64,000 nucleotides of DNA from Minisyncoccia bacterium (GTDB taxonomy: Bacteria > Patescibacteriota > Minisyncoccia > JACQLN01): positions 645-64,644 of the forward strand of contig JBASTM010000008.1 in NCBI GenBank assembly GCA_049274895.1, written 5' to 3'. The notes under the pieces were generated by a model. That model was not told the DNA's origin, made no database searches, and saw only the letters and a list, made by a program, of their open reading frames with translations. A program made the translations under genes and the position numbers. This document shows positions 9,441 to 63,940 of this stretch, piece by piece (positions within the stretch are counted from its first letter, which is position 1; each line of letters starts with the position of its first letter).

Positions 9441-9572
9441 GCAGTATTCTTGAATTAGTCCGAACGCACTTTTCCGAAAAAATTCCCCCGCGAAAATTCG
9501 GAAAGGCGGCGGAGCCGCACCGCTGACAATTTCAAGTTTTTCCCTGCCTGCCGGCAGGCAGGTTTGGCGGCA
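9441..9572. repeat. GC-rich noncoding element, copy 1 (shares ends with 58109-58370) carrying the palindrome CCTGCCTGCCGGCAGGCAGG
   Basis: 31-nt 5' block GCAGTATTCTTGAATTAGTCCGAACGCACTT and 3' block ACAA.TTTTCCCTGCC…GTTTGGCGGC are shared with the second copy; perfect 20-nt palindrome at 9542-9562. Confidence 0.6.
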
Positions 9573-9618
9573 TTCAATTCAAAGATTCGCGAAGCGAATA
9601 TAAAATGAAAATTTCAAA

Positions 9619-10275
9619 TTACAATTCTTTTCTCTCCTTTGCGTTTTTGACCACCAATTCGGCTAGTCGAAGTGTGGTTTCAAACGTCTCTTCTTTTCCC
9701 GTAATTTCCTTTCTCGCCTCAACCTCTGCACGATCTTGGGCAATAATTTCTTCTACAGTCATACCTTCTTTGATTTTTGGGACGATCCGCTCAAAATATC
9801 TTTTAACTCTCCCGTTACTAAGAACCGCTTGTATTAATTCCAGTTTTTCTGCTTCTGAAATATCTTTTTCCATTCGTTCACCATACGCACGTTTTGCCGA
9901 TTCTGTAACTCCAACAAAATCAGATACCGAGCTATCTACCTCTGGATTTTCGGGGGCAGATAATTCCTTTTCCGCGTTTTTATTATCAAAAATTGCAACT
10001 AGCTCTTTTTCATCGGCAACACCAGCCCGAGAGAACACAAGAGCATCATATTTTGGGTCATCAGAAAATCCAGTTTCTATTAAAGAGGCGTTTTTTCTTT
10101 TTTCCTCTGCCTGCTCTGATGAAATTCTACCTGCTTTTTCCATCGCAGAAAGCTCGTCATTCAATGCCCCAAGAAAAATGGCTCTTGGGTCTTCTACAAT
10201 TTTCTCTTTTTCTTCCGGCTTTGGAGTTTCCTCCTGCGGTGGAACTGGATTATTAAAAGGATTTTCTATGCTCAT
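9619..10275 (-). CDS. Hypothetical acidic protein
   Basis: 218-aa ORF with normal composition, preceded by the conserved 130-nt tRNA-distal module; the overlapping + strand ORF 9605-10543 is S-rich and likely spurious. Confidence 0.5.
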   Translation of the reverse strand: MSIENPFNNPVPPQEETPKPEEKEKIVEDPRAIFLGALNDELSAMEKAGRISSEQAEEKRKNASLIETGFSDDPKYDALVFSRAGVADEKELVAIFDNKNAEKELSAPENPEVDSSVSDFVGVTESAKRAYGERMEKDISEAEKLELIQAVLSNGRVKRYFERIVPKIKEGMTVEEIIAQDRAEVEARKEITGKEETFETTLRLAELVVKNAKERKEL

Positions 10276-10299
10276 ATATTTTTATTGGTTAATTATTAA

Positions 10300-10438
10300 A
10301 AAGAATTTTATGATTTTGATTAAAAATTTTTCTTCCCCCAAAATGCGAAATCGTGAATTCGTTTTTACCCCCAAAATTGAATACCAATTAGTCGCCGAGC
10401 GAAGCGAGGCGAACCAAAACTCTTTGACTTTTCCTGTC
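10300..10438 (-). repeat. Conserved ~130-nt module between tRNA-Arg and the downstream gene (copy 1 of 2)
   Basis: About 90% identical to 59340-59468 located after tRNA-Leu(GAG); contains GTCGCCGAGCGAAGCGAGGCGAACC and GGGGGAAGAAAAATTTTTAATC just before the ATG of the downstream gene. Confidence 0.7.
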
Positions 10439-10514
10439 TGGTGTCCCTGGCAGGAATTGAACCTGCGATCTCTTCCTCCGCAGGGAAGCGCTCTATCCGC
10501 TGAGCTACAGGGAC
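10439..10514 (-). tRNA. tRNA-Arg (anticodon GCG) with encoded CCA
   Basis: Minus-strand reading GTCCCTG…D-arm GCTCAGCGGATAGAGC, anticodon stem-loop CTTCC-CTGCGGA-GGAAG, T-arm GCAGG-TTCAATT-CCTGC and ACCA. Confidence 0.7.
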
Positions 10515-10522
10515 AAAATTGT

Positions 10523-11218
10523 TTATGTAATTTTGTCTTTTAATTGTCTGGCTATTTCTAAGAGTTCTTTTCTAATGTCACTATCCAAGTAAGATATGAA
10601 ACAGATTCCCATAAAATTTTTTCTAAACCTTCTCGTCTTACTGCGTTTCTTAAAATATATTTTTCCGAATTGATTCTGTGGAACCTCCAGTAGATTTGAC
10701 CAGAATTTTTTTGAGGAGGAGGTATTGTGGTAATGATGCAAATGCAATCTTATTCTAAATTTATCGTTGTTTATTTTATAACACCTTCTTAATAACGATA
10801 TGTAAAACAGTGCTAAATTTGGATCTGTATTAACAAATTTTAGTCCGCTTACCCCTTTATACTTTGCACCCTCGGCCCAATATAGCATTACCAGCAAAGA
10901 CTTCCAAAACCCAGGGTCTCTCAAGGGATATCTAGATATTTCAGGAGTAATTTTGTCTCTTAGAATTTTTTCCCGCTTTTTCCGTTCCGCTATCTTTACC
11001 GTTTTTGCTAGTGTCCTTATTCTAGCAAGGTGTAAAAGTTGGGCCTTTCTATCAAATACTCCAGGATACTTTTCCCCCAGCCAGCCCGATAGGGTACTTT
11101 TAGGTATATCTAATTTGTCGGTTATATCTTTGTAAGATTTGCCCTTTGAGCGGAGTTTTTCTGCTTTTCTCCTGGTATCCACACCGTAAACCTTTCCTCG
11201 CATAGTAGTTACGAACAA
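10523..11218 (-). CDS. HTH-domain protein with a possible degenerate LAGLIDADG-like nuclease domain
   Basis: N-terminal HTH (KSYKDITDKLDIPKSTLSGWL); central LLVMLYWAEGAKYKG…NTDPNLALFYISLL resembles a degenerate LAGLIDADG helix; ends 9 nt from tRNA-Arg. Confidence 0.3.
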   Translation of the reverse strand: MFVTTMRGKVYGVDTRRKAEKLRSKGKSYKDITDKLDIPKSTLSGWLGEKYPGVFDRKAQLLHLARIRTLAKTVKIAERKKREKILRDKITPEISRYPLRDPGFWKSLLVMLYWAEGAKYKGVSGLKFVNTDPNLALFYISLLRRCYKINNDKFRIRLHLHHYHNTSSSKKFWSNLLEVPQNQFGKIYFKKRSKTRRFRKNFMGICFISYLDSDIRKELLEIARQLKDKIT

Positions 11219-12457: not shown

Positions 12458-12505
12458 ATTTTTTAGGTTCGTAACTTGGATACAGTCAATATGTCTATAA
12501 ACTTG

Positions 12506-12632
12506 GCGGCGGGGGTGAGATTCCTTTCGCTCCGACTCAAGTCGGGTCGCTGCGCGCACTCGCTCCCTTCTCATCTCACTCGCACGCCAAGACTTTGGCG
12601 TGCTCCCCCATCCTCGCTCACTTTGTTCGCTG
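12506..12632 (-). repeat. Structured insert downstream of tRNA-Ser(TGA) ending in an 18-nt direct copy of the tRNA 3' end
   Basis: GCGGCGGGGGTGAGATTC at 12632-12649 is repeated at 12506-12523; the spacer shares ACAAAGTGAGC / GAGATGAGAAGGG / GGAGCGAAAG motifs with the tRNA-Glu flank. Confidence 0.6.
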
Positions 12633-12719
12633 CGGCGGGGGTGAGATTCGAACTCACGAGGGGCTTTCACCCCTAACAGTTTTCAGGACTGTCCTATTCA
12701 ACCGCTCTAGCACCCCGCC
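12633..12719 (-). tRNA. tRNA-Ser (anticodon TGA), type II
   Basis: GGCGGGG acceptor, anticodon stem-loop ACAGT-CCTGAAA-ACTGT, long variable arm AGGGGTGAAAGCCCCTC and T-arm GTGAG-TTCGAAT-CTCAC. Confidence 0.8.
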
Positions 12720-12833
12720 TTAATTTCTCGGCAAAGCCTCGGTCAAAAATATGAGCTATCGCGTTTGCCCGGGTTGCTTTTGCAACCCGTCTAACGTTAT
12801 CCCATAACGTTAGACCCGCTCTAGCACCCCGCC
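12720..12833 (-). repeat. Upstream flank of tRNA-Ser(TGA): conserved tRNA promoter motif plus insert ending in a 17-nt copy of the tRNA 5' end
   Basis: TTTTTGACCGAGGCTTTGCCGAGAAA also precedes tRNA-Leu(GAG); CGCTCTAGCACCCCGCC at 12703-12719 is repeated at 12817-12833; hairpins GTCTAACGTTATgggATAACGTTAGAC and CGGGTTGCaaaaGCAACCCG. Confidence 0.6.
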
Positions 12834-13025: not shown

Positions 13026-13113
13026 GGAGGCGTGGCCGAGTGGCTTAAGGCAGCAGTTTGCTAAACTGCGGGGGTCTAAAAAGCCCCACGAAGGTTCGAA
13101 TCCTTCCGCCTCC
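13026..13113 (+). tRNA. tRNA-Ser (anticodon GCT), type II
   Basis: Acceptor GGAGGCG/CGCCTCC, anticodon stem-loop GCAGT-TTGCTAA-ACTGC, long variable arm and T-arm GAAGG-TTCGAAT-CCTTC. Confidence 0.8.
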
Positions 13114-13164
13114 GCATTGACAACTTTTTATCGGCATGACCCGAGTGCCTATAAAAAAGTTGAA

Positions 13165-13203: not shown

Positions 13204-14112
13204 CTACTCTTCAATCATCGTTATTTTTTTATCTTTGTAGTTTAGTCTGCTTCGCAGATTTGCGAGCAGTTCACGCTTGTCTGATACGCTACCTTCTTTC
13301 AGTAGATATCTAGCATATTGGCGGATGTTCACATCATTTTCTTCGACCAGTGCTTTTCCGATCTGACCATTCACGATCTTCTGTAACTTATTGAACCGCC
13401 TAATTTCATCCTCGAGTTTCTGTCTCATGCCAAGCTCATTGATATTTACCTTATCCATAATTTTTAGAAACTCATCAATAAGTTCTTCCTCACGAATATA
13501 TTTGTTTTTGCAGTTGCGATCTCTTGCCCGACTGCATCTGTAGTAGATGTAGTGTGCCGACGTGCCATCTTTGAGTGGTTTCCATTTTTCCTCAGCTGAT
13601 ATGCCGGACTGGCAGTACCCGCAGGTGAATAATTTTGTGAAGGCGAATTCTTTATTCTCCCTGACTATTTGATCGCGCTTCAGTTGTGCTTGAGCTTTTT
13701 CAAACAACTCTTGGGTGATAAGCGGTTGATGTTTACCTTGATACCAATTACCACCCTTTCTTGGGTATTCAAACAGCCCGTAATAGAAGGGGTTATCAAG
13801 TATGCGATAAACCCCGGAGAGTGTGAGTGGCTTATTACCTCTGGTATGGAAATTCAGTTCAAACTTGAGCCAGTTGTAAATCTTTCTGCCCGAGTAATGT
13901 TCATATGCGACCTTCTCGAAAATTTTCTTTACAGTCGGCGCTCGGAGCGAATCAATGGCAATCTGACATTTCTTATCCATGAGTTTCTGATTGAGATAGC
14001 CAAGTGGTGCCACTCCCGGCCATAAACCCATCTCCACCCTTGTTCGCAATCCTCTTTTAACATTAATGCCTCGATTGTCGTTTTCGAGCTTCGCTTGTGA
14101 GCCTAAAATCAT
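13204..14112 (-). pseudogene. Large serine recombinase fragment lacking the N-terminal resolvase catalytic domain
   Basis: Begins at the alphaE-helix-like QAKLENDNRGINVKRGL, then the recombinase domain (GLWPGVAPLGY) and zinc ribbon (CGYCQ…YYRCSRARDRNC) with a coiled-coil tail; there is no room upstream for the Ser-nucleophile domain because the Nudix gene abuts it. Confidence 0.55.
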
Positions 14113-18534: not shown

Positions 18535-18662
18535 TAATGCTTGCATAGTACGGGCACTTAACCCGAGTACACCGCAATAATCCGCAAGGACAGCTGGGAG
18601 CTGTCCGAGCGGCTCGAACCATATTTTGCCTGCCTACCGGCAGGCAGGTCGGGGTTTTTTAT
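18535..18662 (+). ncRNA. Candidate small RNA (promoter-like TTATAAT followed by nested hairpins and a terminator)
   Basis: CTTATAATGCTTGCATAG, then hairpins (GACAGCTgggAGCTGTC and CGAGCggCTCG), then GCCTGCCTACCGGCAGGCAGG + TCGGGGTTTTTT; sits in a 420-nt intergenic region. Confidence 0.2.
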
Positions 18663-26940: not shown

Positions 26941-27152
26941 GGGCTTTGTCTAAAAATTTGTCCCGTACGATACGGGACAAATTTTTAGGAACAAAACCTT
27001 ACCCCGCCCTAATTCTGTTTGCGAACTGCGATTTTCCGTGAGCTCGAGCGAAGCGCTTCGCTCGAAATCATTGGAAGTATCAAGATCGTGGCTGGAATTA
27101 GGGCGGGGTTCTATATTTTACAACTATTCGCTTTGCTCACAGGTAAAATATG
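26938..27152 (+). repeat. Modular intergenic cassette, copy A (rpsJ to rplC)
   Basis: Starts TAAGGGCTTTGTCTAAAAA on the stop codon; hairpin CTAAAAATTTGTCCCGTAcgaTACGGGACAAATTTTTAG; long-range stem ACCCCGCCCTAATTC…GAATTAGGGCGGGGT; ends …CTATTCGCTTTGCTCACAGGTAAAATATG. Confidence 0.65.
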
Positions 27153-27560
27153 AAATACATCATCGGAGAAAAATTAGGTATGACGCAGTTGGTGGGCGAA
27201 AAGGGCGAAATCATCCCGGTGACTTTGATTGGAGCCGAAACCGATTTCTCCCCGGGAGATTTAGTCAAAGTCAGCGCCCGTTCCACCGGCAAGGGTTTTC
27301 AGGGGGTGGTCAAAAGACATGGCTTTCACGGCAGTCCGGCTTCGCACGGCCACCACGCCGTGTTGCGCCGCCCCGGGTCCATTGGCGGGCGGTTTCCCCA
27401 GAGAGTTTTGAAAGGCAAAAGAATGGGCGGCCGTACCGGGGGCCAGAGAGTCACCGTCAAAAACTTGAAGGTGATCAGGGTAGATGCGGCCCTTAAGGTC
27501 ATTGCGGTTAGAGGAGCAATACCCGGGAAGAAAGGGACGAGGGTGGAAATCCGGACATGA
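27150..27560 (+). CDS. rplC: 50S ribosomal protein L3 (short form)
   Basis: N-terminus MKYIIGEKLGMTQL… matches the L3 start; only 136 aa. Confidence 0.8.
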   Translation: MKYIIGEKLGMTQLVGEKGEIIPVTLIGAETDFSPGDLVKVSARSTGKGFQGVVKRHGFHGSPASHGHHAVLRRPGSIGGRFPQRVLKGKRMGGRTGGQRVTVKNLKVIRVDAALKVIAVRGAIPGKKGTRVEIRT

Positions 27561-29493: not shown

Positions 29494-29703
29494 GGGCTTT
29501 ACCCAAGAGCGGAGCGATTGGTTGTAAAACCTTACCCAGCACATAAATCAACGAGTCATGACAATAAAATATATAAAATCAAAATCAATAAAAGGTCAGT
29601 ATGCAAACAAAACCACACCCAGTGGATTTATGTGCTGGGTGCTCACTTTTATAACTAAATTTTATACGCTAAGCAGCTCTAAAATTTAGACAAAACTGGC
29701 ATG
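29491..29703 (+). repeat. Modular intergenic cassette, copy B (rplB to rpsS)
   Basis: Starts TAAGGGCTTTACCCAAGAGCGGAGCGATTGG; hairpin CCCAGCACATAAATC…GATTTATGTGCTGGG; ends GTGCTCACTTTTATAACT…TTTAGACAAAACTGGCATG. Confidence 0.6.
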
Positions 29704-31240: not shown

Positions 31241-31294
31241 GCGGGGTGCTCAATTTAATAGCTATTCGCTTCGCTCATAGATAAAATTGGCATG
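31238..31294 (+). repeat. Modular intergenic cassette, copy C (minimal; rpsC to rplP)
   Basis: TGAGCGGGGTGCTCAATTTAATAGCTATTCGCTTCGCTCATAGATAAAATTGGCATG — only the conserved 3' module. Confidence 0.65.
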
Positions 31295-32534: not shown

Positions 32535-32680
32535 GGGCTTTGTCTAAAAAATGGAACGAAGTGGACATTTTTTAGCTACAAAACCTTATCCTGAACGTAG
32601 TGAAGGATTACCCCTCGGTTTTTACCTCGGGGTGCTCAATTTAATAGCTATTCGCTTCGCTCATAGATAAAATTGGCATG
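32532..32680 (+). repeat. Modular intergenic cassette, copy D (rplN to rplX)
   Basis: TAAGGGCTTTGTCTAAAAAATGGAACGAAGTGGACATTTTTTAG hairpin … AAAACCTTA … GGGGTGCTCAATTTAATAGCTATTCGCTTCGCTCATAGATAAAATTGGCATG. Confidence 0.65.
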
Positions 32681-40536: not shown

Positions 40537-41650
40537 ATGACCCCAGAATTTAAGAGCAGATTGGAAGATTTATCAAATAAGCTCCGTCACCTGACGGACC
40601 GTCTTTGACCTTGCCCCCAAGAAGAATCAGCTTAATAATTTGGAGGCGGAAACAACCGGAAAAGACTTTTGGCAAAACCGCCTTCATTCCCGAAGTGTCC
40701 TCCGTGAGATTACCGACCTAAAAGATTTGGTTAGTAAGTGGGGAAATTACGAGAGCGATCTTAAACATCTGGCCGAAGTGGCCGAAATTTTTGAAGACTT
40801 GGCGGATAACGGCCAATTGTTTAAGGAATTCAAAAGATCTTTGGAAAAACTGGAGCTCGAGCTGGAAAAAGAAGAAACTTTGGTTTATATGTCGGGCCGT
40901 TACGACAAAGCTAACGCCGTTATGACCATTTATTCCGGCGCTGGCGGAACAGATGCCCAGGAGTGGGTGGAAATGCTGCTTAAGATGTATTTAAAATACT
41001 CCGAGAAAACCGGGTTCAAAACTCAAGTGATGGCGGTTACCGGTGGGCAGGAATCCGGCCTCAAAAATGCTATAATAGAGGTACACGGCCAATATGCCTA
41101 CGGCTACTTAAAACGGGAGAACGGTGTTCACCGCCTGGTTAGGGTTTCGCCGTTTTCATCGCAGAGTTTGAGGCATACCTCGTTCGCTTTAGTTGAGGTT
41201 TTGCCCGAACTGGACGGTGTTTCGGCTATAGAAATAAGGCCGGAGGATATTAGGGTGGATACCTACCGGGCCGGCGGGCCGGGCGGTCAATATGTTAACA
41301 AAACAGAATCAGCCGTAAGAGTAACGCACCTGGCCACGGGTTTGGTGGCAACTTCGCAGGCCGAAAGATCGCAGGGCACCAATAAAGACAAAGCCATGAA
41401 ACTGCTTTACGCCAAGCTTCAGCAAAGATTGGATCAAGAACATAAAAAGACCGTGGAGGAACTAAAAGGTGAGAACGTAAAGATAGAGTGGGGGCATCAA
41501 ATACGTTCCTATGTGTTGAACCCGTATAAAATGGTTAAAGACCACCGCACCGGTTATGAAACTACTCAAGCCGAAAATGTGTTGGCAGGAAATTTGAAAG
41601 ATTTTATAGAAGCTGAACTAAGGGCTTGGCCTGCGAGCGAAAGCGAGTAG
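40537..41650 (+). CDS. prfB: Peptide chain release factor 2 with programmed +1 frameshift (ORF1 40537-40608; +1 frame 40607-41650)
   Basis: ORF1 ends …GAC CGT CTT TGA C, the canonical CUU UGA C shift site; the +1 frame continues DLAPKKNQL… into the RF2 body with SPF and GGQ regions (…RAGGPGGQYVNKTESAVRVTH…). Confidence 0.85.
40603..40609 (+). promoter_or_regulatory. prfB +1 ribosomal frameshift site CTT TGA C
   Basis: An in-frame TGA after 23 codons; downstream +1 frame is the RF2 body. Confidence 0.8.
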
Positions 41651-41762
41651 TTGCCAAACCTTACCCAGCACCTTTTTGAGGTAAAGATTATTTATACATC
41701 TAAAAGGTGCTGGGTGCTCAATTTTATAACTATTTACTACGCTCTTAGATAAAATTGGCATG
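41648..41762 (+). repeat. Modular intergenic cassette, copy E (prfB to ftsE)
   Basis: AACCTTACCCAGCACCTTTTTGAGGTAAAGATTATTTATACATCTAAAAGGTGCTGGGTGCTCAATTTTATAACTATTTACTACGCTCTTAGATAAAATTGGCATG. Confidence 0.65.
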
Positions 41763-57582: not shown

Positions 57583-57873
57583 CTAGGGACTCGGGTGTAG
57601 ATATCGATAAGTGTTAGAAGTTCTGCGTTCTACCCAGAAAACATGTATTAATCTTTTTGAAATGTGTATTTCGTAAAAAATCCTATACGAGCCCACACGC
57701 CTCCGCCAAGTATTTTCTTCGCCTTTAATTTTATTAGTATCACCCACAAAAGGATCCATTATTAATAATTCAATGATGTCGGTTATCTTTTCAGAGTATT
57801 CTTTGGGGAATTTTTTGATTTGTCTACGAACTTTATCGTCCACTTTCAATTCCCAATTTTCGTTTGAGCTCAT
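57583..57873 (-). CDS. RelE/ParE-family toxin
   Basis: …TWRRRVGSYRIFYEIHISKRLIHVFWVERR core. Confidence 0.65.
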   Translation of the reverse strand: MSSNENWELKVDDKVRRQIKKFPKEYSEKITDIIELLIMDPFVGDTNKIKGEENTWRRRVGSYRIFYEIHISKRLIHVFWVERRTSNTYRYLHPSP

Positions 57874-58066
57874 GTATTGTTAAAAATTTGCCCCGGGCTA
57901 AATTCTTTCGTGCTTCTTTGAGAGCTTTTTTTTGAGCGGGAGTCAATTCAACTTCTCGGGTTTTTTTTAGACGAAAACTTAAAAACTCCTCGTATTCCTT
58001 GCGGGGAATTATAACAAGGTCGCCTTTTTCCACCATATTTTTAGGAATGGTTACGGAGTTTATCAT
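57833..58066 (-). CDS. AbrB/SpoVT-like antitoxin
   Basis: …TIPKNMVEKGDLVIIPRKEYEEF…; overlaps the toxin. Confidence 0.5.
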   Translation of the reverse strand: MINSVTIPKNMVEKGDLVIIPRKEYEEFLSFRLKKTREVELTPAQKKALKEARKNLARGKFLTIHELKRKLGIESGR

Positions 58067-58108
58067 ATATTATAAATTAACATACTAACGATTATAATCA
58101 AATTGGGT

Positions 58109-58370
58109 GCGGTATTCTTGAATTAGTCCGAACGTACTTCGTCCCTCAGTACCTTCGGCATTTCGCCGCCTGCGGCGGCGAGCCTGCCTGCCGGCAAGGC
58201 AGGGAAGCCCCGCCCACAAGCGCGGCTCCGCCGCGAGCCGGACAATTTTCCCGATGGCCTTGCCATCGTGGATCCTCGATTTTGTGAATTCACTTCGTTC
58301 ATACAAAATCGGGACAAGTTTTTCCCTGCCCCGTAGTGAAACGAAGTTTCTACTACTGGGGTTTGGCGGC
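58109..58370. repeat. GC-rich noncoding element, copy 2 (shares ends with 9441-9572)
   Basis: 5' block GCGGTATTCTTGAATTAGTCCGAACGTACTT, palindrome CCTGCCTGCCGGCAAGGCAGG and 3' block ACAAGTTTTTCCCTGCC…GTTTGGCGGC. Confidence 0.6.
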
Positions 58371-59384
58371 TTAATTAGTTCTTTGCCAACTTTCGCCAGC
58401 ATTTGAACTCCGATAGATTATACCATCTTCACTAGAAGCAGTAAGTTCTCTGGAATTTTTGGGATTGATGGCAATGGCAGTAATCTTGATACCATTAAGA
58501 CCGTCTAGTTTTTTCCAGTTTTGTCCAGCGTCAATCGTTTTCCAAGCCCCGGTTTGTGTGCCTGCATATATAACAGATAAATCTTTATGAAGAGTGGCAA
58601 GAGTATAAACTGTTGTGTTGTCAAAAACATTTGTTGTCTTTGTCCAGCCACAGAAACAACTGAAAGATTGGAAAACGCCGTCAGCCGTTCCCGCCAAAAG
58701 GAGACCCCAATTATCCCAGCCCATAGATTTATCCATCGAAGTTTGTACTGCCATGTATGCAAACGATCTTATTCCGGGATTCTCTGGTCCATCATCCATA
58801 CGCTTCCACGAAACGCCGCCGTCTTTACTTTTGAACACCCCATTATCAACAGAGTAGGCAAAAAGTAAATCGGGATTGCGTTGATTAATCGCCAAGCCAT
58901 GAATATCCGTACCTTTTATCCCATCATCAGAACGCATCCAAGTAATACCGCCGTCAATACTTTTTATGACACCTAAATCATGCCCACCGGCAAAAATTGT
59001 TTTCTGGTTTCGAGGGTCAACAACGATACTCATCCAATCATCAGCGTTGACACTTCCCTTTACCGAAACCTTTTGCCAAGTTTTGCCGCCATCGTCGCTC
59101 TTGAATAGACCGCCGTGTGTTCCTAAAAGTAAATTGCCTTCGGTGTCGTAGGTAATAGCATGGATATGTTGAGCTCCGGGTATTACAGAATTGCTAGAAC
59201 CACCTTCATCGCTATGAGACATTACTGTTTTATTAACCGAAGTATCTGCCGGAGTGTTAGTAGATTTGTTACTCACGCCCAAGAAATAGCCAACTACTAT
59301 GGCACCAACAATAAAAACTGGAATTAATAATTTGTTGTTCATATGATTAAAAATTTTTCTTCCCCCAAAATGCGGAACCGCCAA
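58371..59384 (-). CDS. BNR/Asp-box repeat beta-propeller protein (Ycf48/sialidase-like), membrane-anchored
   Basis: Repeated S-x-D-G-G-x-T-W motifs (SDDGGKTW, SIDGGITW, SKDGGVSW, SNAGESW); N-terminal TM helix. Confidence 0.6.
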   Translation of the reverse strand: MAVPHFGGRKIFNHMNNKLLIPVFIVGAIVVGYFLGVSNKSTNTPADTSVNKTVMSHSDEGGSSNSVIPGAQHIHAITYDTEGNLLLGTHGGLFKSDDGGKTWQKVSVKGSVNADDWMSIVVDPRNQKTIFAGGHDLGVIKSIDGGITWMRSDDGIKGTDIHGLAINQRNPDLLFAYSVDNGVFKSKDGGVSWKRMDDGPENPGIRSFAYMAVQTSMDKSMGWDNWGLLLAGTADGVFQSFSCFCGWTKTTNVFDNTTVYTLATLHKDLSVIYAGTQTGAWKTIDAGQNWKKLDGLNGIKITAIAINPKNSRELTASSEDGIIYRSSNAGESWQRTN

Positions 59385-59468
59385 TTCGTTTTTACCCCCA
59401 AAATTGAATACAAATTAGTCGCCGAGCGAAGCGAGGCGAACCAAAACTCTTTGACTTTTCCTGTCTGG
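59340..59468 (-). repeat. Conserved ~130-nt module between tRNA-Leu(GAG) and the downstream gene (copy 2 of 2)
   Basis: Near-identical to 10300-10438. Confidence 0.7.
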
Positions 59469-59551
59469 TGCGCGGGGGGAGACTCGAACTCCCAAGCCTT
59501 ACGGCATACGCACCTCAAGCGTACGTGTATACCAAATTCCACCACCCGCGC
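59466..59551 (-). tRNA. tRNA-Leu (anticodon GAG), type II, with encoded CCA
   Basis: GCGCGGG acceptor, anticodon stem-loop TACGC-TTGAGGT-GCGTA, long variable arm and T-arm GGGAG-TTCGAGT-CTCCC. Confidence 0.8.
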
Positions 59552-59660
59552 TTTATTTTCTCGGCAAAGCCTCGGTCAAAAAACTGTGGCGGGTAGGTGG
59601 CCGGGGCAGCTTTTGCTGCCCGCGGAAAGCTGCGTTCACTCGCTTTCCGCCCACCCGCGC

Positions 59661-63798: not shown

Positions 63799-63940
63799 GT
63801 ATTTGTCCAAGAGCAAAGCGATTGGTGACAAATAGTTACCCAGCACCTTTTGAAGGTAAAGATTATTTATACATCTAAAAGGTGCTGGGTGTTCAATGTT
63901 GTAACTACTCGCTATGCTCATAGACAACATTGGCATATGG
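63796..63940 (+). repeat. Modular intergenic cassette, copy F
   Basis: TAAGTATTTGTCCAAGAGCAAAGCGATTGG…TTACCCAGCACCTTTTGAAGGTAAAGATTATTTATACATCTAAAAGGTGCTGGGTGTTCAATGTTGTAACTACTCGCTATGCTCATAGACAACATTGGCATATG; its 5' part resembles copy B and its hairpin resembles copy E. Confidence 0.6.

Follow-up and report, generated by a model that had tools for sequence, protein, structure and literature searches.

Single-gene cassettes behind two tRNA genes of a Minisyncoccia bacterium probably belong to a Candidate Phyla Radiation-wide family of integrative elements that a large serine recombinase moves

The stretch of 64,000 nucleotides (nt) analyzed here (hereafter the window; positions 645 to 64,644 of contig JBASTM010000008.1 in the Minisyncoccia assembly GCA_049274895.1) carries two distant loci built on the same plan, in which a tRNA gene is followed by a conserved module, a protein-coding gene, and a GC-rich 3′ element, all on the minus strand. 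The two tRNA genes, called by ARAGORN and Rfam alike, are tRNA-Arg(GCG) (10439..10514) and tRNA-Leu(GAG) (59466..59551). An earlier interpretation made from the letters of the window alone (hereafter the sequence-only reading) had seen in this arrangement an integration or expression cassette that captures different cargo genes beside tRNAs. Our comparison of these loci with those of other genomes strongly supports that view and leads us to propose, with a probability of about 0.85, that both are recombinase-less single-gene cassettes of integrative elements that are moved by a large serine recombinase (LSR) throughout the Candidate Phyla Radiation (CPR, or Patescibacteria), the two tRNA genes being their integration targets.

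The module that follows tRNA-Arg(GCG) spans 10316..10438 and the one that follows tRNA-Leu(GAG) spans 59343..59465. In a pairwise comparison they are identical at 117 of 123 nt, which bears out the near-identical stretch of about 130 nt that had been reported after each tRNA, and a 28-nt piece of the module finds these two sites only in the window, with 0.00 expected from shuffles. Both copies start with three variable nucleotides (NNN, here GAC), continue with a block that we call M5, covering the first ~80 nt of the module (10356-10434 in the Arg copy), and end with a block that we call M3, covering its last ~27 nt (ATTTTGGGGGAAGAAAATTTTTTAATC; 10318-10344 and 59345-59371). M5 holds the putative attachment arm P′, a core hairpin (TTCGCC..GGCGA), and, as detailed below, the antisense of the C-terminal coding sequence of the LSR. 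The Leu module ends AATCAT right before an ATG, with 2 nt between M3 and the start codon, so that the claim of a module leading directly into a gene stands for this copy; it does not for the Arg copy, where a further 42-nt spacer intervenes. The gene behind the Arg module (cargo gene 1; 9619..10275) encodes a Glu/Lys-rich protein of 218 amino acids (aa) that matches no Pfam family, and the gene behind the Leu module (cargo gene 2; 58371..59342) encodes a 323-aa protein that combines BNR/Sortilin-type repeats with a membrane anchor or signal at its N-terminus; for neither cargo protein, nor for the RecG encoded in the window, did look-ups of exact protein sequences return a record. The latter most likely starts at the ATG at 59342, and the span of 58371-59384 previously given to it, which implies a TTG start at 59384, is disfavored.

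The 3′ element of the Arg locus (9439..9618) comprises a terminator-like hairpin (ATTCGC-TTCG-CGAAT; 9585-9599), a conserved block (GCCGCCAA..AGAAAAACTTGAAATTGTCAGCGGTGCGGCTCCGCCGCC..) into which a palindrome is inserted (9543-9562), and a terminal arm, P, that mimics a tRNA end (GCGTTCGGACTAATTCAAGAATACTGCAC; 9439-9467). The 3′ element of the Leu locus (58107..58370) has the same frame, with its palindrome at 58183-58203 and a P arm at 58107-58135 that differs by one T>C change, and carries four or five extra GC-rich hairpins, which account for its length of 264 nt. The two elements share a 33-nt end block identical at 31 of 33 positions (9439-9471 and 58107-58139), in which the 31-nt block of the sequence-only reading is recovered, as well as GGCAGGGAAAAACTTG, GCCGCCAAACC, and the near-identical palindrome; between their common blocks they are not alignable. 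The G+C content of these 3′ tails reaches 53-58%, versus 47% for the window, and they end at the putative attR junctions, between 9439 and 9438 at the Arg locus and approximately between 58107 and 58106 at the Leu locus.

These two loci are far from isolated. An exact search for a 27-nt core of the module (TTCGCCTCGCTTCGCTCGGCGACTAAT), with one genome per species, returned at least 120 matching stretches, in metagenome-assembled genomes (MAGs) of Saccharibacteria, of Nomura-, Kaiser-, Uhr-, Doudna-, Andersen-, Gottesman-, Roizman-, Portnoy-, Yanofsky-, and Paceibacteria types, and of others; the few core-bearing MAGs labeled as lying outside CPR are probably mis-binned, and many of the matches sit at contig ends. 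Among the matches listed, to which all our counts on tRNA linkage refer (L-numbers below designate the loci compared), the core lies at a fixed distance after a tRNA gene of the same strand in 89 cases, which represent 19 anticodon types, mainly Leu, Arg, Tyr, Met, Lys, and Gly. Further copies after tRNAs and before genes, which the sequence-only reading had proposed to look for, are thus abundant, and the scenario of only two copies within a segmental duplication clearly fails, as at least 120 genomes carry the module core, with diverse cargo. The 27-mer has no match among the viral contigs of IMG/VR, on which ground we set aside carriage by phages. Since we also found no description of this element in the open-access full-text literature searched, the family is apparently both very widespread in CPR and undescribed.

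What moves these modules is suggested by several loci in which two inverted module copies, ~1.5 kb apart, surround a protein of ~490 aa (MKYILYARKSTEEDDRQVLSIEAQ...). This protein is a large serine recombinase: a Pfam domain search of the copy in L024 (4247-5704) finds the Resolvase (PF00239), Recombinase (PF07508), and Zn_ribbon_recom (PF13408) domains, and the protein is a distant relative of the A118 and SPbeta serine integrases of solved structure (PDB), with a weak match also to 3g13, a “putative conjugative transposon recombinase.” Its relatives form at least 7,813 clusters at 90% identity, the best 120 of which are at least 80% identical to the L024 query; wherever their source is named, it is a CPR lineage, and the proteins are titled only “recombinase family protein” or similar. 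The tie between module and recombinase goes down to the coding sequence. Indeed, when read on its opposite strand, the 5′ 80 nt of the module belong to the LSR C-terminal coding sequence, the last ~30 codons of the LSR (C-terminus ..FVFTPKIEYQLVAERSEANQNSLTFPVW) being encoded by the reverse complement of M5, and a second, forward M5-M3 forms the 5′ untranslated region (UTR) of the LSR gene and is itself directly preceded by P. The Arg module of the window is 97% identical over 126 nt to the LSR 5′-UTR copy of L024 and 99% identical over 101 nt to the LSR 3′ end. Between the Arg 3′ element and its cargo-side counterpart in L096, identity reaches 97% over 106 nt. In L201, the two M5 copies of a single LSR element (1-230 versus 1580-1700) are different sequence variants, one of them bearing a core hairpin with the stem CCGCCGCC-TTCG-GCGGCGG versus the usual TCGCC...GGCGA. 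The hairpin is thereby kept with a different stem even though it falls within LSR codons, a hint that the M5 hairpin itself may be under selection, possibly as a terminator of the LSR gene.

To describe the architecture of the family, we mapped in all loci the blocks M5 and M3, together with Q (LSR codons ~445-453), E3 (the conserved block within the 3′ element), and P (the 3′-end block of that element, which corresponds to the 31-nt block of the sequence-only reading). Because P directly precedes the M5-M3 of the LSR 5′ UTR, P and module are contiguous in LSR-bearing copies (..GAATACTGCAC/CA-NNN-AGGAAAAGTC.., a slash marking the junction here and below). The two ends of the window cassettes map onto this contiguous sequence: in L024c, positions 1143-1246 match window positions 9530-9439 and positions 1244-1369 match window positions 10443-10318, with a 3-nt overlap (CAC); the Arg pieces map in the same way in L069c, and the pieces of the Leu locus map onto the P/module junction with a 5-nt overlap. 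The inner halves of the cassette ends thus rejoin into a putative attP with an overlap of 3-5 nt, and the sequences beyond attR resemble native tRNA trailers, so that outer and inner halves fit the attL…attR layout expected of an integrated element that lacks its recombinase, in the order tRNA/module–gene–3′ element/flank.

The census of junctions gives 36 cases of tRNA/M5-Q (LSR antisense), 23 of tRNA/M5-M3-cargo, 20 of P/M5-M3-LSR, and only three of tRNA/M5-M3-LSR, two of which have a truncated LSR and the third of which is cut by the end of the locus. Two kinds of elements emerge. Full composites of ~3 kb (e.g., L098, L096, L116, L118, L069, and L076) have the order tRNA/ M5 Q <LSR <M3 <M5 /<P <E3 <Q M3> cargo> E3> P> /flank, in which angle brackets give orientation: these autonomous copies carry one divergently oriented cargo gene behind an M3 leader and hold direct M3 repeats. 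Window-type cassettes have the order tRNA/ M5 M3 cargo E3 P /flank and measure 656-1,358 nt in 18 of the 19 cases measured, the 19th, in L058, reaching 2,332 nt. Truncated intermediates also exist: tRNA/M5-M3-LSR(1-54/73)-Q-M3-cargo-P occurs in L074 and L075, and L007 retains a 43-aa LSR stub.

The anatomy of the junctions further specifies how integration may proceed. Every occupied tRNA gene (89 cases) ends with ..(G/A)CACCA (rarely GTACCA), followed by the three variable nucleotides (CGT in 45, GAA in 25, GAC in 15, plus others) and by AGGAAA, whereas most of the 114 unoccupied tRNA genes in the same loci have no encoded CCA and read ..GCAC/AA.., /AG.., /TC.., etc. On the distal side of the element, P does not vary as far as ..TGCAC, after which come CA, AA, AG, TA, TC.., matching the spectrum of native trailers, and the shared core is therefore GCAC. 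Within attL, bases specific to the tRNA are kept at -2 (A, in the window tRNA-Arg) and at -1 (T, in L008, L048, and L089), which places the crossover most likely at the discriminator A and the following C. The element would on this account donate the CCA, and the terminal CCA of the window tRNA-Arg(GCG) (10441-10439) is probably such a donation. When arms are anchored on the discriminator, the T-loop motif GTTCGA lies at -20..-15 in 101 tRNA arms, and GTTCGGA lies at -25..-19 in 25 P arms. For the LI integrase, the motif of the zinc-ribbon domain (ZD) is displaced outward by 5 bp in attP relative to attB, an offset that has been proposed for other LSRs (PMC3783163). The outward shift of GTTCG between tRNA arm and P arm reproduces this offset, suggesting by analogy that GTTCG is what the zinc-ribbon domain reads, and because the shift is of exactly 5 bp, P looks like a mimic of a tRNA end built to attP geometry. 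The outermost ~30 nt of each conserved piece (at the start of the module and at the end of the 3′ element), which had been taken for parts of a leader and of a terminator, are best read as the P′ and P arms rather than primarily as such signals.

On this basis, we propose that the LSR binds both attP (..GCGTTCGGACTAATTCAAGAATACTGCAC/CA-NNN-AGGAAAAGTCAAAGAGTTTTGG.., the 3′ block being the left arm P and the module start the right arm P′) and the 3′ end of a tRNA gene acting as attB, whose T-loop GTTCGA and ..GCA(C) end it would recognize. Strand exchange within GCAC would then yield the order tRNA/module...gene...3′ element/old tRNA trailer, with attL at 10441/10438 and 59468/59465 and attR at 9439 and 58107, and would supply the tRNA gene with an encoded CCA. 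The predicted pre-integration site of the Arg locus is tRNA-Arg...GGGACAC/AATAAAAACC, and the circle junction predicted for either cassette is ...GAATACTGCAC/CAGACAGGAAAAG, joined to the cargo side. The window cassettes could derive from composites through deletion of the LSR between the two direct M3 repeats, or they could be mobilized in trans.

The neighborhood of the Arg cassette allows a comparison with orthologous sites, for recG lies just downstream of it. Out of 80 loci encoding RecG relatives, retrieved from metagenomes, 50 have a co-oriented tRNA-Arg(GCG) upstream, in a conserved order tRNA-Ser, tRNA-Ser, tRNA-Arg(GCG), recG. The gap between tRNA-Arg(GCG) and recG is at most 150 nt in 44 of these 50 relatives, and from -3 to +9 nt in 32 of those 44, when it reaches 1,443 nt in the window, where it is made of the 1,000-nt cassette (9439-10438) and a 95-aa open reading frame (ORF). 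The tRNA-Arg(GCG) of the relatives ends with ..GGGACAC or ..GGGGCAC, most encoding no CCA. Empty orthologous sites thus exist in relatives, and one genome whose RecG is 48% identical (L160) carries an independent composite element at the very same site, with its P arm 13 nt before recG. Among L122-L200, the recG start codon often abuts tRNA-Arg(GCG) directly (..GCAC/ATGAATCTC), in which case recG would be transcribed straight out of the tRNA. The extra genes that precede recG in the window (8995-10439) and in L121 encode products that share their C-terminal ~40 aa.

These observations bear on a quite different explanation, namely that module and 3′ element are a host-encoded, vertically inherited tRNA trailer or leader and 3′ UTR, serving to express genes cotranscribed with tRNAs and involving no mobility. 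The cargo indeed follows the tRNA at once and in the same orientation, the conserved M3 is frequently adjacent to the start codon, and the module has no consensus promoter. The site left empty in 44 of 50 relatives nevertheless largely refutes this explanation, and so do, to our eyes, ends that are near-identical in a genome as distant as L160, a module so tightly linked to a recombinase gene that it overlaps its coding sequence, and the presence of this module behind 19 tRNA types; we regard a purely host-encoded architecture as very improbable.

That LSR-less cassettes behave as discrete units is apparent from their recurrence in different contexts. A cassette encoding a CYTH protein follows tRNA-Leu(TAA) in L058, and its 88% identical counterpart in L029 lies 2 kb away from that genome's tRNA-Leu(TAA); the homology stops at the module start on one side and at the end of P on the other. 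Likewise, the cassette of L036 recurs beside an LSR in L022 (84% identity). The cargo is varied, including CYTH, HIT, and BNR proteins, several S-adenosylmethionine (SAM) methyltransferases, an asparaginase, and many secreted MNQKGF.. proteins. Cargo gene 1 shares with the cargo of a Kaiserbacteria cassette (L059, 1068-1976) only the first ~25 residues (MSIENPF.NP.PQEETPKPEE) and a similar spacer of ~41 nt after M3, the remainder of the two proteins being unrelated, which makes recombination inside the 5′ ends of cargo genes possible.

As for the expression of this cargo, M3 ends 2 nt before the ATG of 12 ORFs, 10 of which are complete cargo genes, and it is M3 alone that precedes the cargo in composites. 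Because M3 is conserved and so often abuts a start codon, a leader role for these last ~30 nt of the module is plausible. A search of the module for a sigma-70 consensus promoter found none. Expression may come from read-through of the tRNA transcript, the module hairpin having no T-run behind it, from signals within M3, or from both.

A consensus of the 3′ element, derived from the alignment of 68 copies, helps to distinguish what belongs to the family from what belongs to this genome. It starts with an ATTCGC-TTYG-CGAAT hairpin, followed by TGAAT, GCCGCCAA, AGAAAAACTTGAAATTGTCA, GCGGTGCGGCTCCGCCGCC, TTTCCGAA, and TTTTCGCGGGGGG, and ends with one of two short hairpin variants and the P arm. 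The window palindrome (CCTGCCTGCCGGCAGGCAGG) is an insertion between GCCGCCAA and AGAAAAACTTG: it is near-identical in both window copies, as the sequence-only reading had it, but it is a hairpin inserted in this genome rather than a feature of the family. The Leu copy carries more hairpins, at the palindrome point and at three or four other points. Other, genome-specific hairpins are inserted in L007, L008, and L103, some of them within the loop of an existing hairpin, suggesting that hairpins are seeded or expanded by some process at work in these genomes.

Both window copies have the palindrome at the same insertion point, with the same flanks (ACC...GGCAGG), and both have an A5T5 variant of M3; the two frames are therefore each other's closest relatives despite their unlike cargo, suggesting either that cargo was exchanged while the frame was conserved or that the two copies underwent gene conversion. 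Such private variants are also what an intragenomic segmental duplication, a gene conversion, or an assembly artefact would leave behind. The genes enclosed by the two sets of ends are however unrelated, the tRNAs and flanks differ, and identical ends are present in assemblies that number in the hundreds and come independently from many laboratories and habitats, so that duplication or artefact is refuted as the sole explanation, with a residual likelihood close to nil, even if gene conversion may still add to the private similarity.

Given that the 3′ elements are rich in GC and in hairpins, we also considered that the module, the 3′ element, or both might function as a structured noncoding RNA, such as a small RNA, a riboswitch, or a processing signal. 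When compared with shuffles, the Leu 3′ element folds strikingly well (z = -6.95), and in L201 the core hairpin persists despite a changed stem sequence. The Arg 3′ element (z = -0.88) and the two modules (z = +0.55 and -0.15) fold no better than shuffles, though, leading us to reject a structured RNA leader or trailer, and Rfam matched only the tRNAs at gathering and permissive thresholds alike. The strong fold of the Leu copy stems from its copy-specific inserted hairpins, which are missing from the family consensus, and we therefore hold an RNA-based function of this kind to be highly unlikely. Two related candidates were discarded as well. A group II intron on the plus strand (with a GTGCG 5′ end) has neither a reverse transcriptase ORF nor an adequately long domain V-like hairpin, and the long plus-strand ORF 9605-10543 is the mirror of the Glu-rich cargo gene. 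A processing stem between module and 3′ element, in the style of rRNA 5′/3′ processing, is supported by weak complementarity only, as judged by eye.

Several results weigh against the proposal that the window loci are cassettes of LSR-moved elements, or against parts of it. The family LSR, present in L024 and many other loci, is absent from the whole 64-kb window. The window copies are therefore non-autonomous derivatives, and mobilization here would either depend on a copy located elsewhere or belong to the past. Neither an excised circle nor presence/absence within one population was seen among the loci compared; among the ~1.8-kb LSR contigs, L201, a candidate circle, proved to be a normal integrated element truncated by the assembly, its termini not overlapping. 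We identified no recombination directionality factor and noticed no conserved candidate small ORF in the composites, and the junction census contains no tandem array of cargo cassettes (direct P/M5-cargo). LSR copies always hold an extra inverted attP-like site, which a simple attP x attB model leaves unexplained. No clear two-fold symmetry relates P′ to P, and GCAT is found at three attR sites, making our crossover assignment inexact. Finally, L121, the closest relative at recG (RecG 90% identical), has a different, longer gene upstream of it and offers no clean empty site.

Part of this list would be expected if the cassettes were dead fossils of composites that integrated and then lost their LSR, immobile and owing their architecture to their parent. 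Besides the lack of an LSR in the window, the truncated intermediates of L074, L075, and L007, the direct M3 repeats that could mediate the deletion, the lack of cassette arrays, and a Leu 3′ element riddled with hairpin insertions all go in this direction. However, over 36 attR sites, LSR-less cassettes hardly vary in their P arms and 3′ block, which would be functionless in a fossil, and this near-perfect conservation argues for continued function or recent arrival; moreover, the LSR-less CYTH cassette occurs in different contexts with sharp ends of homology, and the window cassettes share private derived features but differ in cargo. We consider full fossilization possible but rather doubtful, and retain the reading of the two loci as LSR-moved, single-gene cassettes, whose present mobility may depend on a recombinase acting in trans.

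A bolder and more tentative extension of this reading, which we think could well be wrong, is that a single LSR family serves as a gene-shuffling platform for the whole of CPR, combining an attP whose mimic, shifted by 5 bp, lets it read the universal T-loop and acceptor end of many tRNAs, promoter-proximal single-gene cassettes that settle right behind tRNA genes and write the CCA of their target, mobilization of LSR-less cassettes in trans, and ON/OFF flipping of the LSR segment. This would give a role to the inverted attP, which might form an invertible arrangement relative to the tRNA promoter: in the ON state, the LSR segment would be read through from that promoter, and the common antisense orientation would be the OFF state, the whole being likened to a serine-recombinase integron that has no arrays. 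If this were true, the near-identity of the ends across CPR classes would make the element a ready, broad-host-range integration tool for bacteria with almost no genetics at present.

CPR bacteria, whose genomes are tiny, make up much of bacterial diversity and are regarded as having few mobile elements and few genetic tools. In this regard, the abundance of the family (at least 7,813 recombinase clusters, representatives of at least 120 species, and as many as two copies within the 64 kb of the window), ends that are far more conserved than the housekeeping genes of the same genomes, and the delivery of single accessory genes (for secreted proteins, methyltransferases, CYTH, HIT, and asparaginase) to defined, highly transcribed spots together make it a likely major route of gene flow among CPR. 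The family also explains many of the tRNA-adjacent contig breaks in CPR MAGs, the variable C-termini of their “recombinase family proteins,” and the occurrence of CCA-encoding tRNA genes in lineages that otherwise encode no CCA. It moreover offers a natural case of a serine integrase that targets a conserved feature of RNA genes by mimicry, and as its att sites can be read from sequence, the element is testable as a multi-site integration tool.

Other features of the window deserve mention. At 18610..18648 (plus strand), a sequence that matches the LSR 3′ Q block at 20 of 20 nt is fused to the palindrome of the Arg 3′ element (CCTGCCTACCGGCAGGCAGG) and followed by a T-run; this site lies between genes with no tRNA nearby, its blastn E-value (~1e-3) is borderline, and it is probably element debris, unless it is a hint that the palindrome travels with element fragments. 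A 302-aa ORF (13204-14112, minus strand), ~35% identical to the CPR LSR, has Recombinase and zinc-ribbon domains only, with no catalytic Resolvase domain, and its 3′ end converges on that of tRNA-Ser(GCT) (13026-13115, plus strand), 88 nt away; it looks like the truncated remnant of a second tRNA-associated LSR family. Just after tRNA-Ser(TGA) (12632-12719), a GC-rich insert of ~110 nt (AGCGAACAAAGTGAGCGAGG...; 12504-12647, minus strand) lies between 17-nt direct repeats corresponding to the tRNA 3′ end (AATCTCACCCCCGCCGC), and the same start of insert is found after tRNA-Trp in L072 (4694-4711), possibly revealing another small element that targets tRNA ends. A 37-nt block (TTTTTGACCGAGGCTTTGCCGAGAAA.TAA.GCG) that is 92% identical between 12713-12749 and 59546-59582, directly upstream of tRNA-Ser(TGA) and tRNA-Leu(GAG), may be a promoter or leader common to these tRNAs. 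The Leu cassette is immediately followed, past its attR, by a ParE-toxin gene (57583-57873) and an upstream 77-aa ORF, likely its antitoxin (57583-58066 for the pair, minus strand). A second repeat family of five to six copies (..TTACCCAGCAC..(~30 nt)..GTGCTGGGTGCTCAATTTTATAACTATTCGCTTCGCTCATAGATAAAATTGGC) occupies the plus strand at 27104-27156, 29513-29657, 31242-31294, 32628-32680, 41640-41762, and 63815-63937. It has two inverted-repeat stems and no Rfam match; the copy at 41760 ends exactly at the ATG of the downstream ORF, and other copies end with GGCATG too.

Mechanistically, the CPR element appears to be a serine-integrase attP/attB system. Like the integrases of A118 (LI), Bxb1, phiC31, and SPbeta, its recombinase has three domains, with A118 and SPbeta as sequence relatives, and like them it leaves hybrid attL and attR sites around a very short identical core and sets the recognition motif of attP 5 bp farther from the crossover than that of attB. 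These integrases differ in that they use one unique site, usually inside a protein gene, whereas the CPR element uses the 3′ ends of many tRNA genes, with a B′ half-site that is essentially arbitrary, and in that phage or integrative and conjugative element (ICE) systems carry a whole phage or ICE, against a payload of one or two genes here. Also peculiar to the CPR element are an LSR reading frame that runs through the P′ arm and across the crossover, an inverted attP that is always found beside the LSR, and a directionality factor that is nowhere to be seen.

The transposons Tn4451 and Tn5397 offer another parallel, as their LSR (TnpX and TndX, respectively) alone excises and inserts a small cargo element into targets that resemble the joint of the circular form. 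They use a GA dinucleotide and loosely defined targets, measure several kb, and carry resistance genes. The target of the CPR element is by contrast a tRNA end mimicked by its P arm, and among solved structures its LSR matches the A118 and SPbeta integrases best, no close sequence relationship with these transposons having emerged.

Conceptually, the CPR element resembles the tycheposons of Prochlorococcus, cargo-carrying elements that likewise insert at the tRNA genes of a streamlined genome, create variable regions, and leave integrase-less remnants (bioRxiv 10.1101/2020.12.28.424599). Tycheposons are however multi-gene elements that leave partial tRNA duplications and rely in 474 of 501 cases on tyrosine recombinases, each integrase being specific for one of seven tRNAs (bioRxiv 10.1101/2020.12.28.424599), whereas the CPR family associates a single LSR family with at least 19 tRNA types, moves single-gene units, and duplicates only a core of 3-4 nt. 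We thus rejected a tycheposon or another tRNA island of a tyrosine integrase: there is no tyrosine recombinase, and the distal end, instead of copying the resident tRNA, is a mimic whose GTTCG lies 5 nt out of the tRNA register. A miniature inverted-repeat transposable element or an insertion sequence was rejected too, given that module and P are not inverted repeats and that no flanking duplication extends beyond the CAC core.

The likeness with integron cassettes lies in small single-gene units, a conserved 3′ recombination site, a fixed platform, and very diverse cargo. An integron cassette proper was rejected, the enzyme being a serine rather than a tyrosine recombinase, direct P/M5-cargo arrays being absent, and the Arg 3′ element being no more stable than shuffles; the CPR element moreover has no folded site of the attC type and no attI/Pc platform, and each of its cassettes has its own 5′ leader. 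What sets this family apart from characterized LSR systems is the combination of a T-loop mimicry directed at the 3′ ends of many tRNAs, an arbitrary B′, a reading frame that spans the crossover, an internal inverted attP, and cassettes of one gene each.

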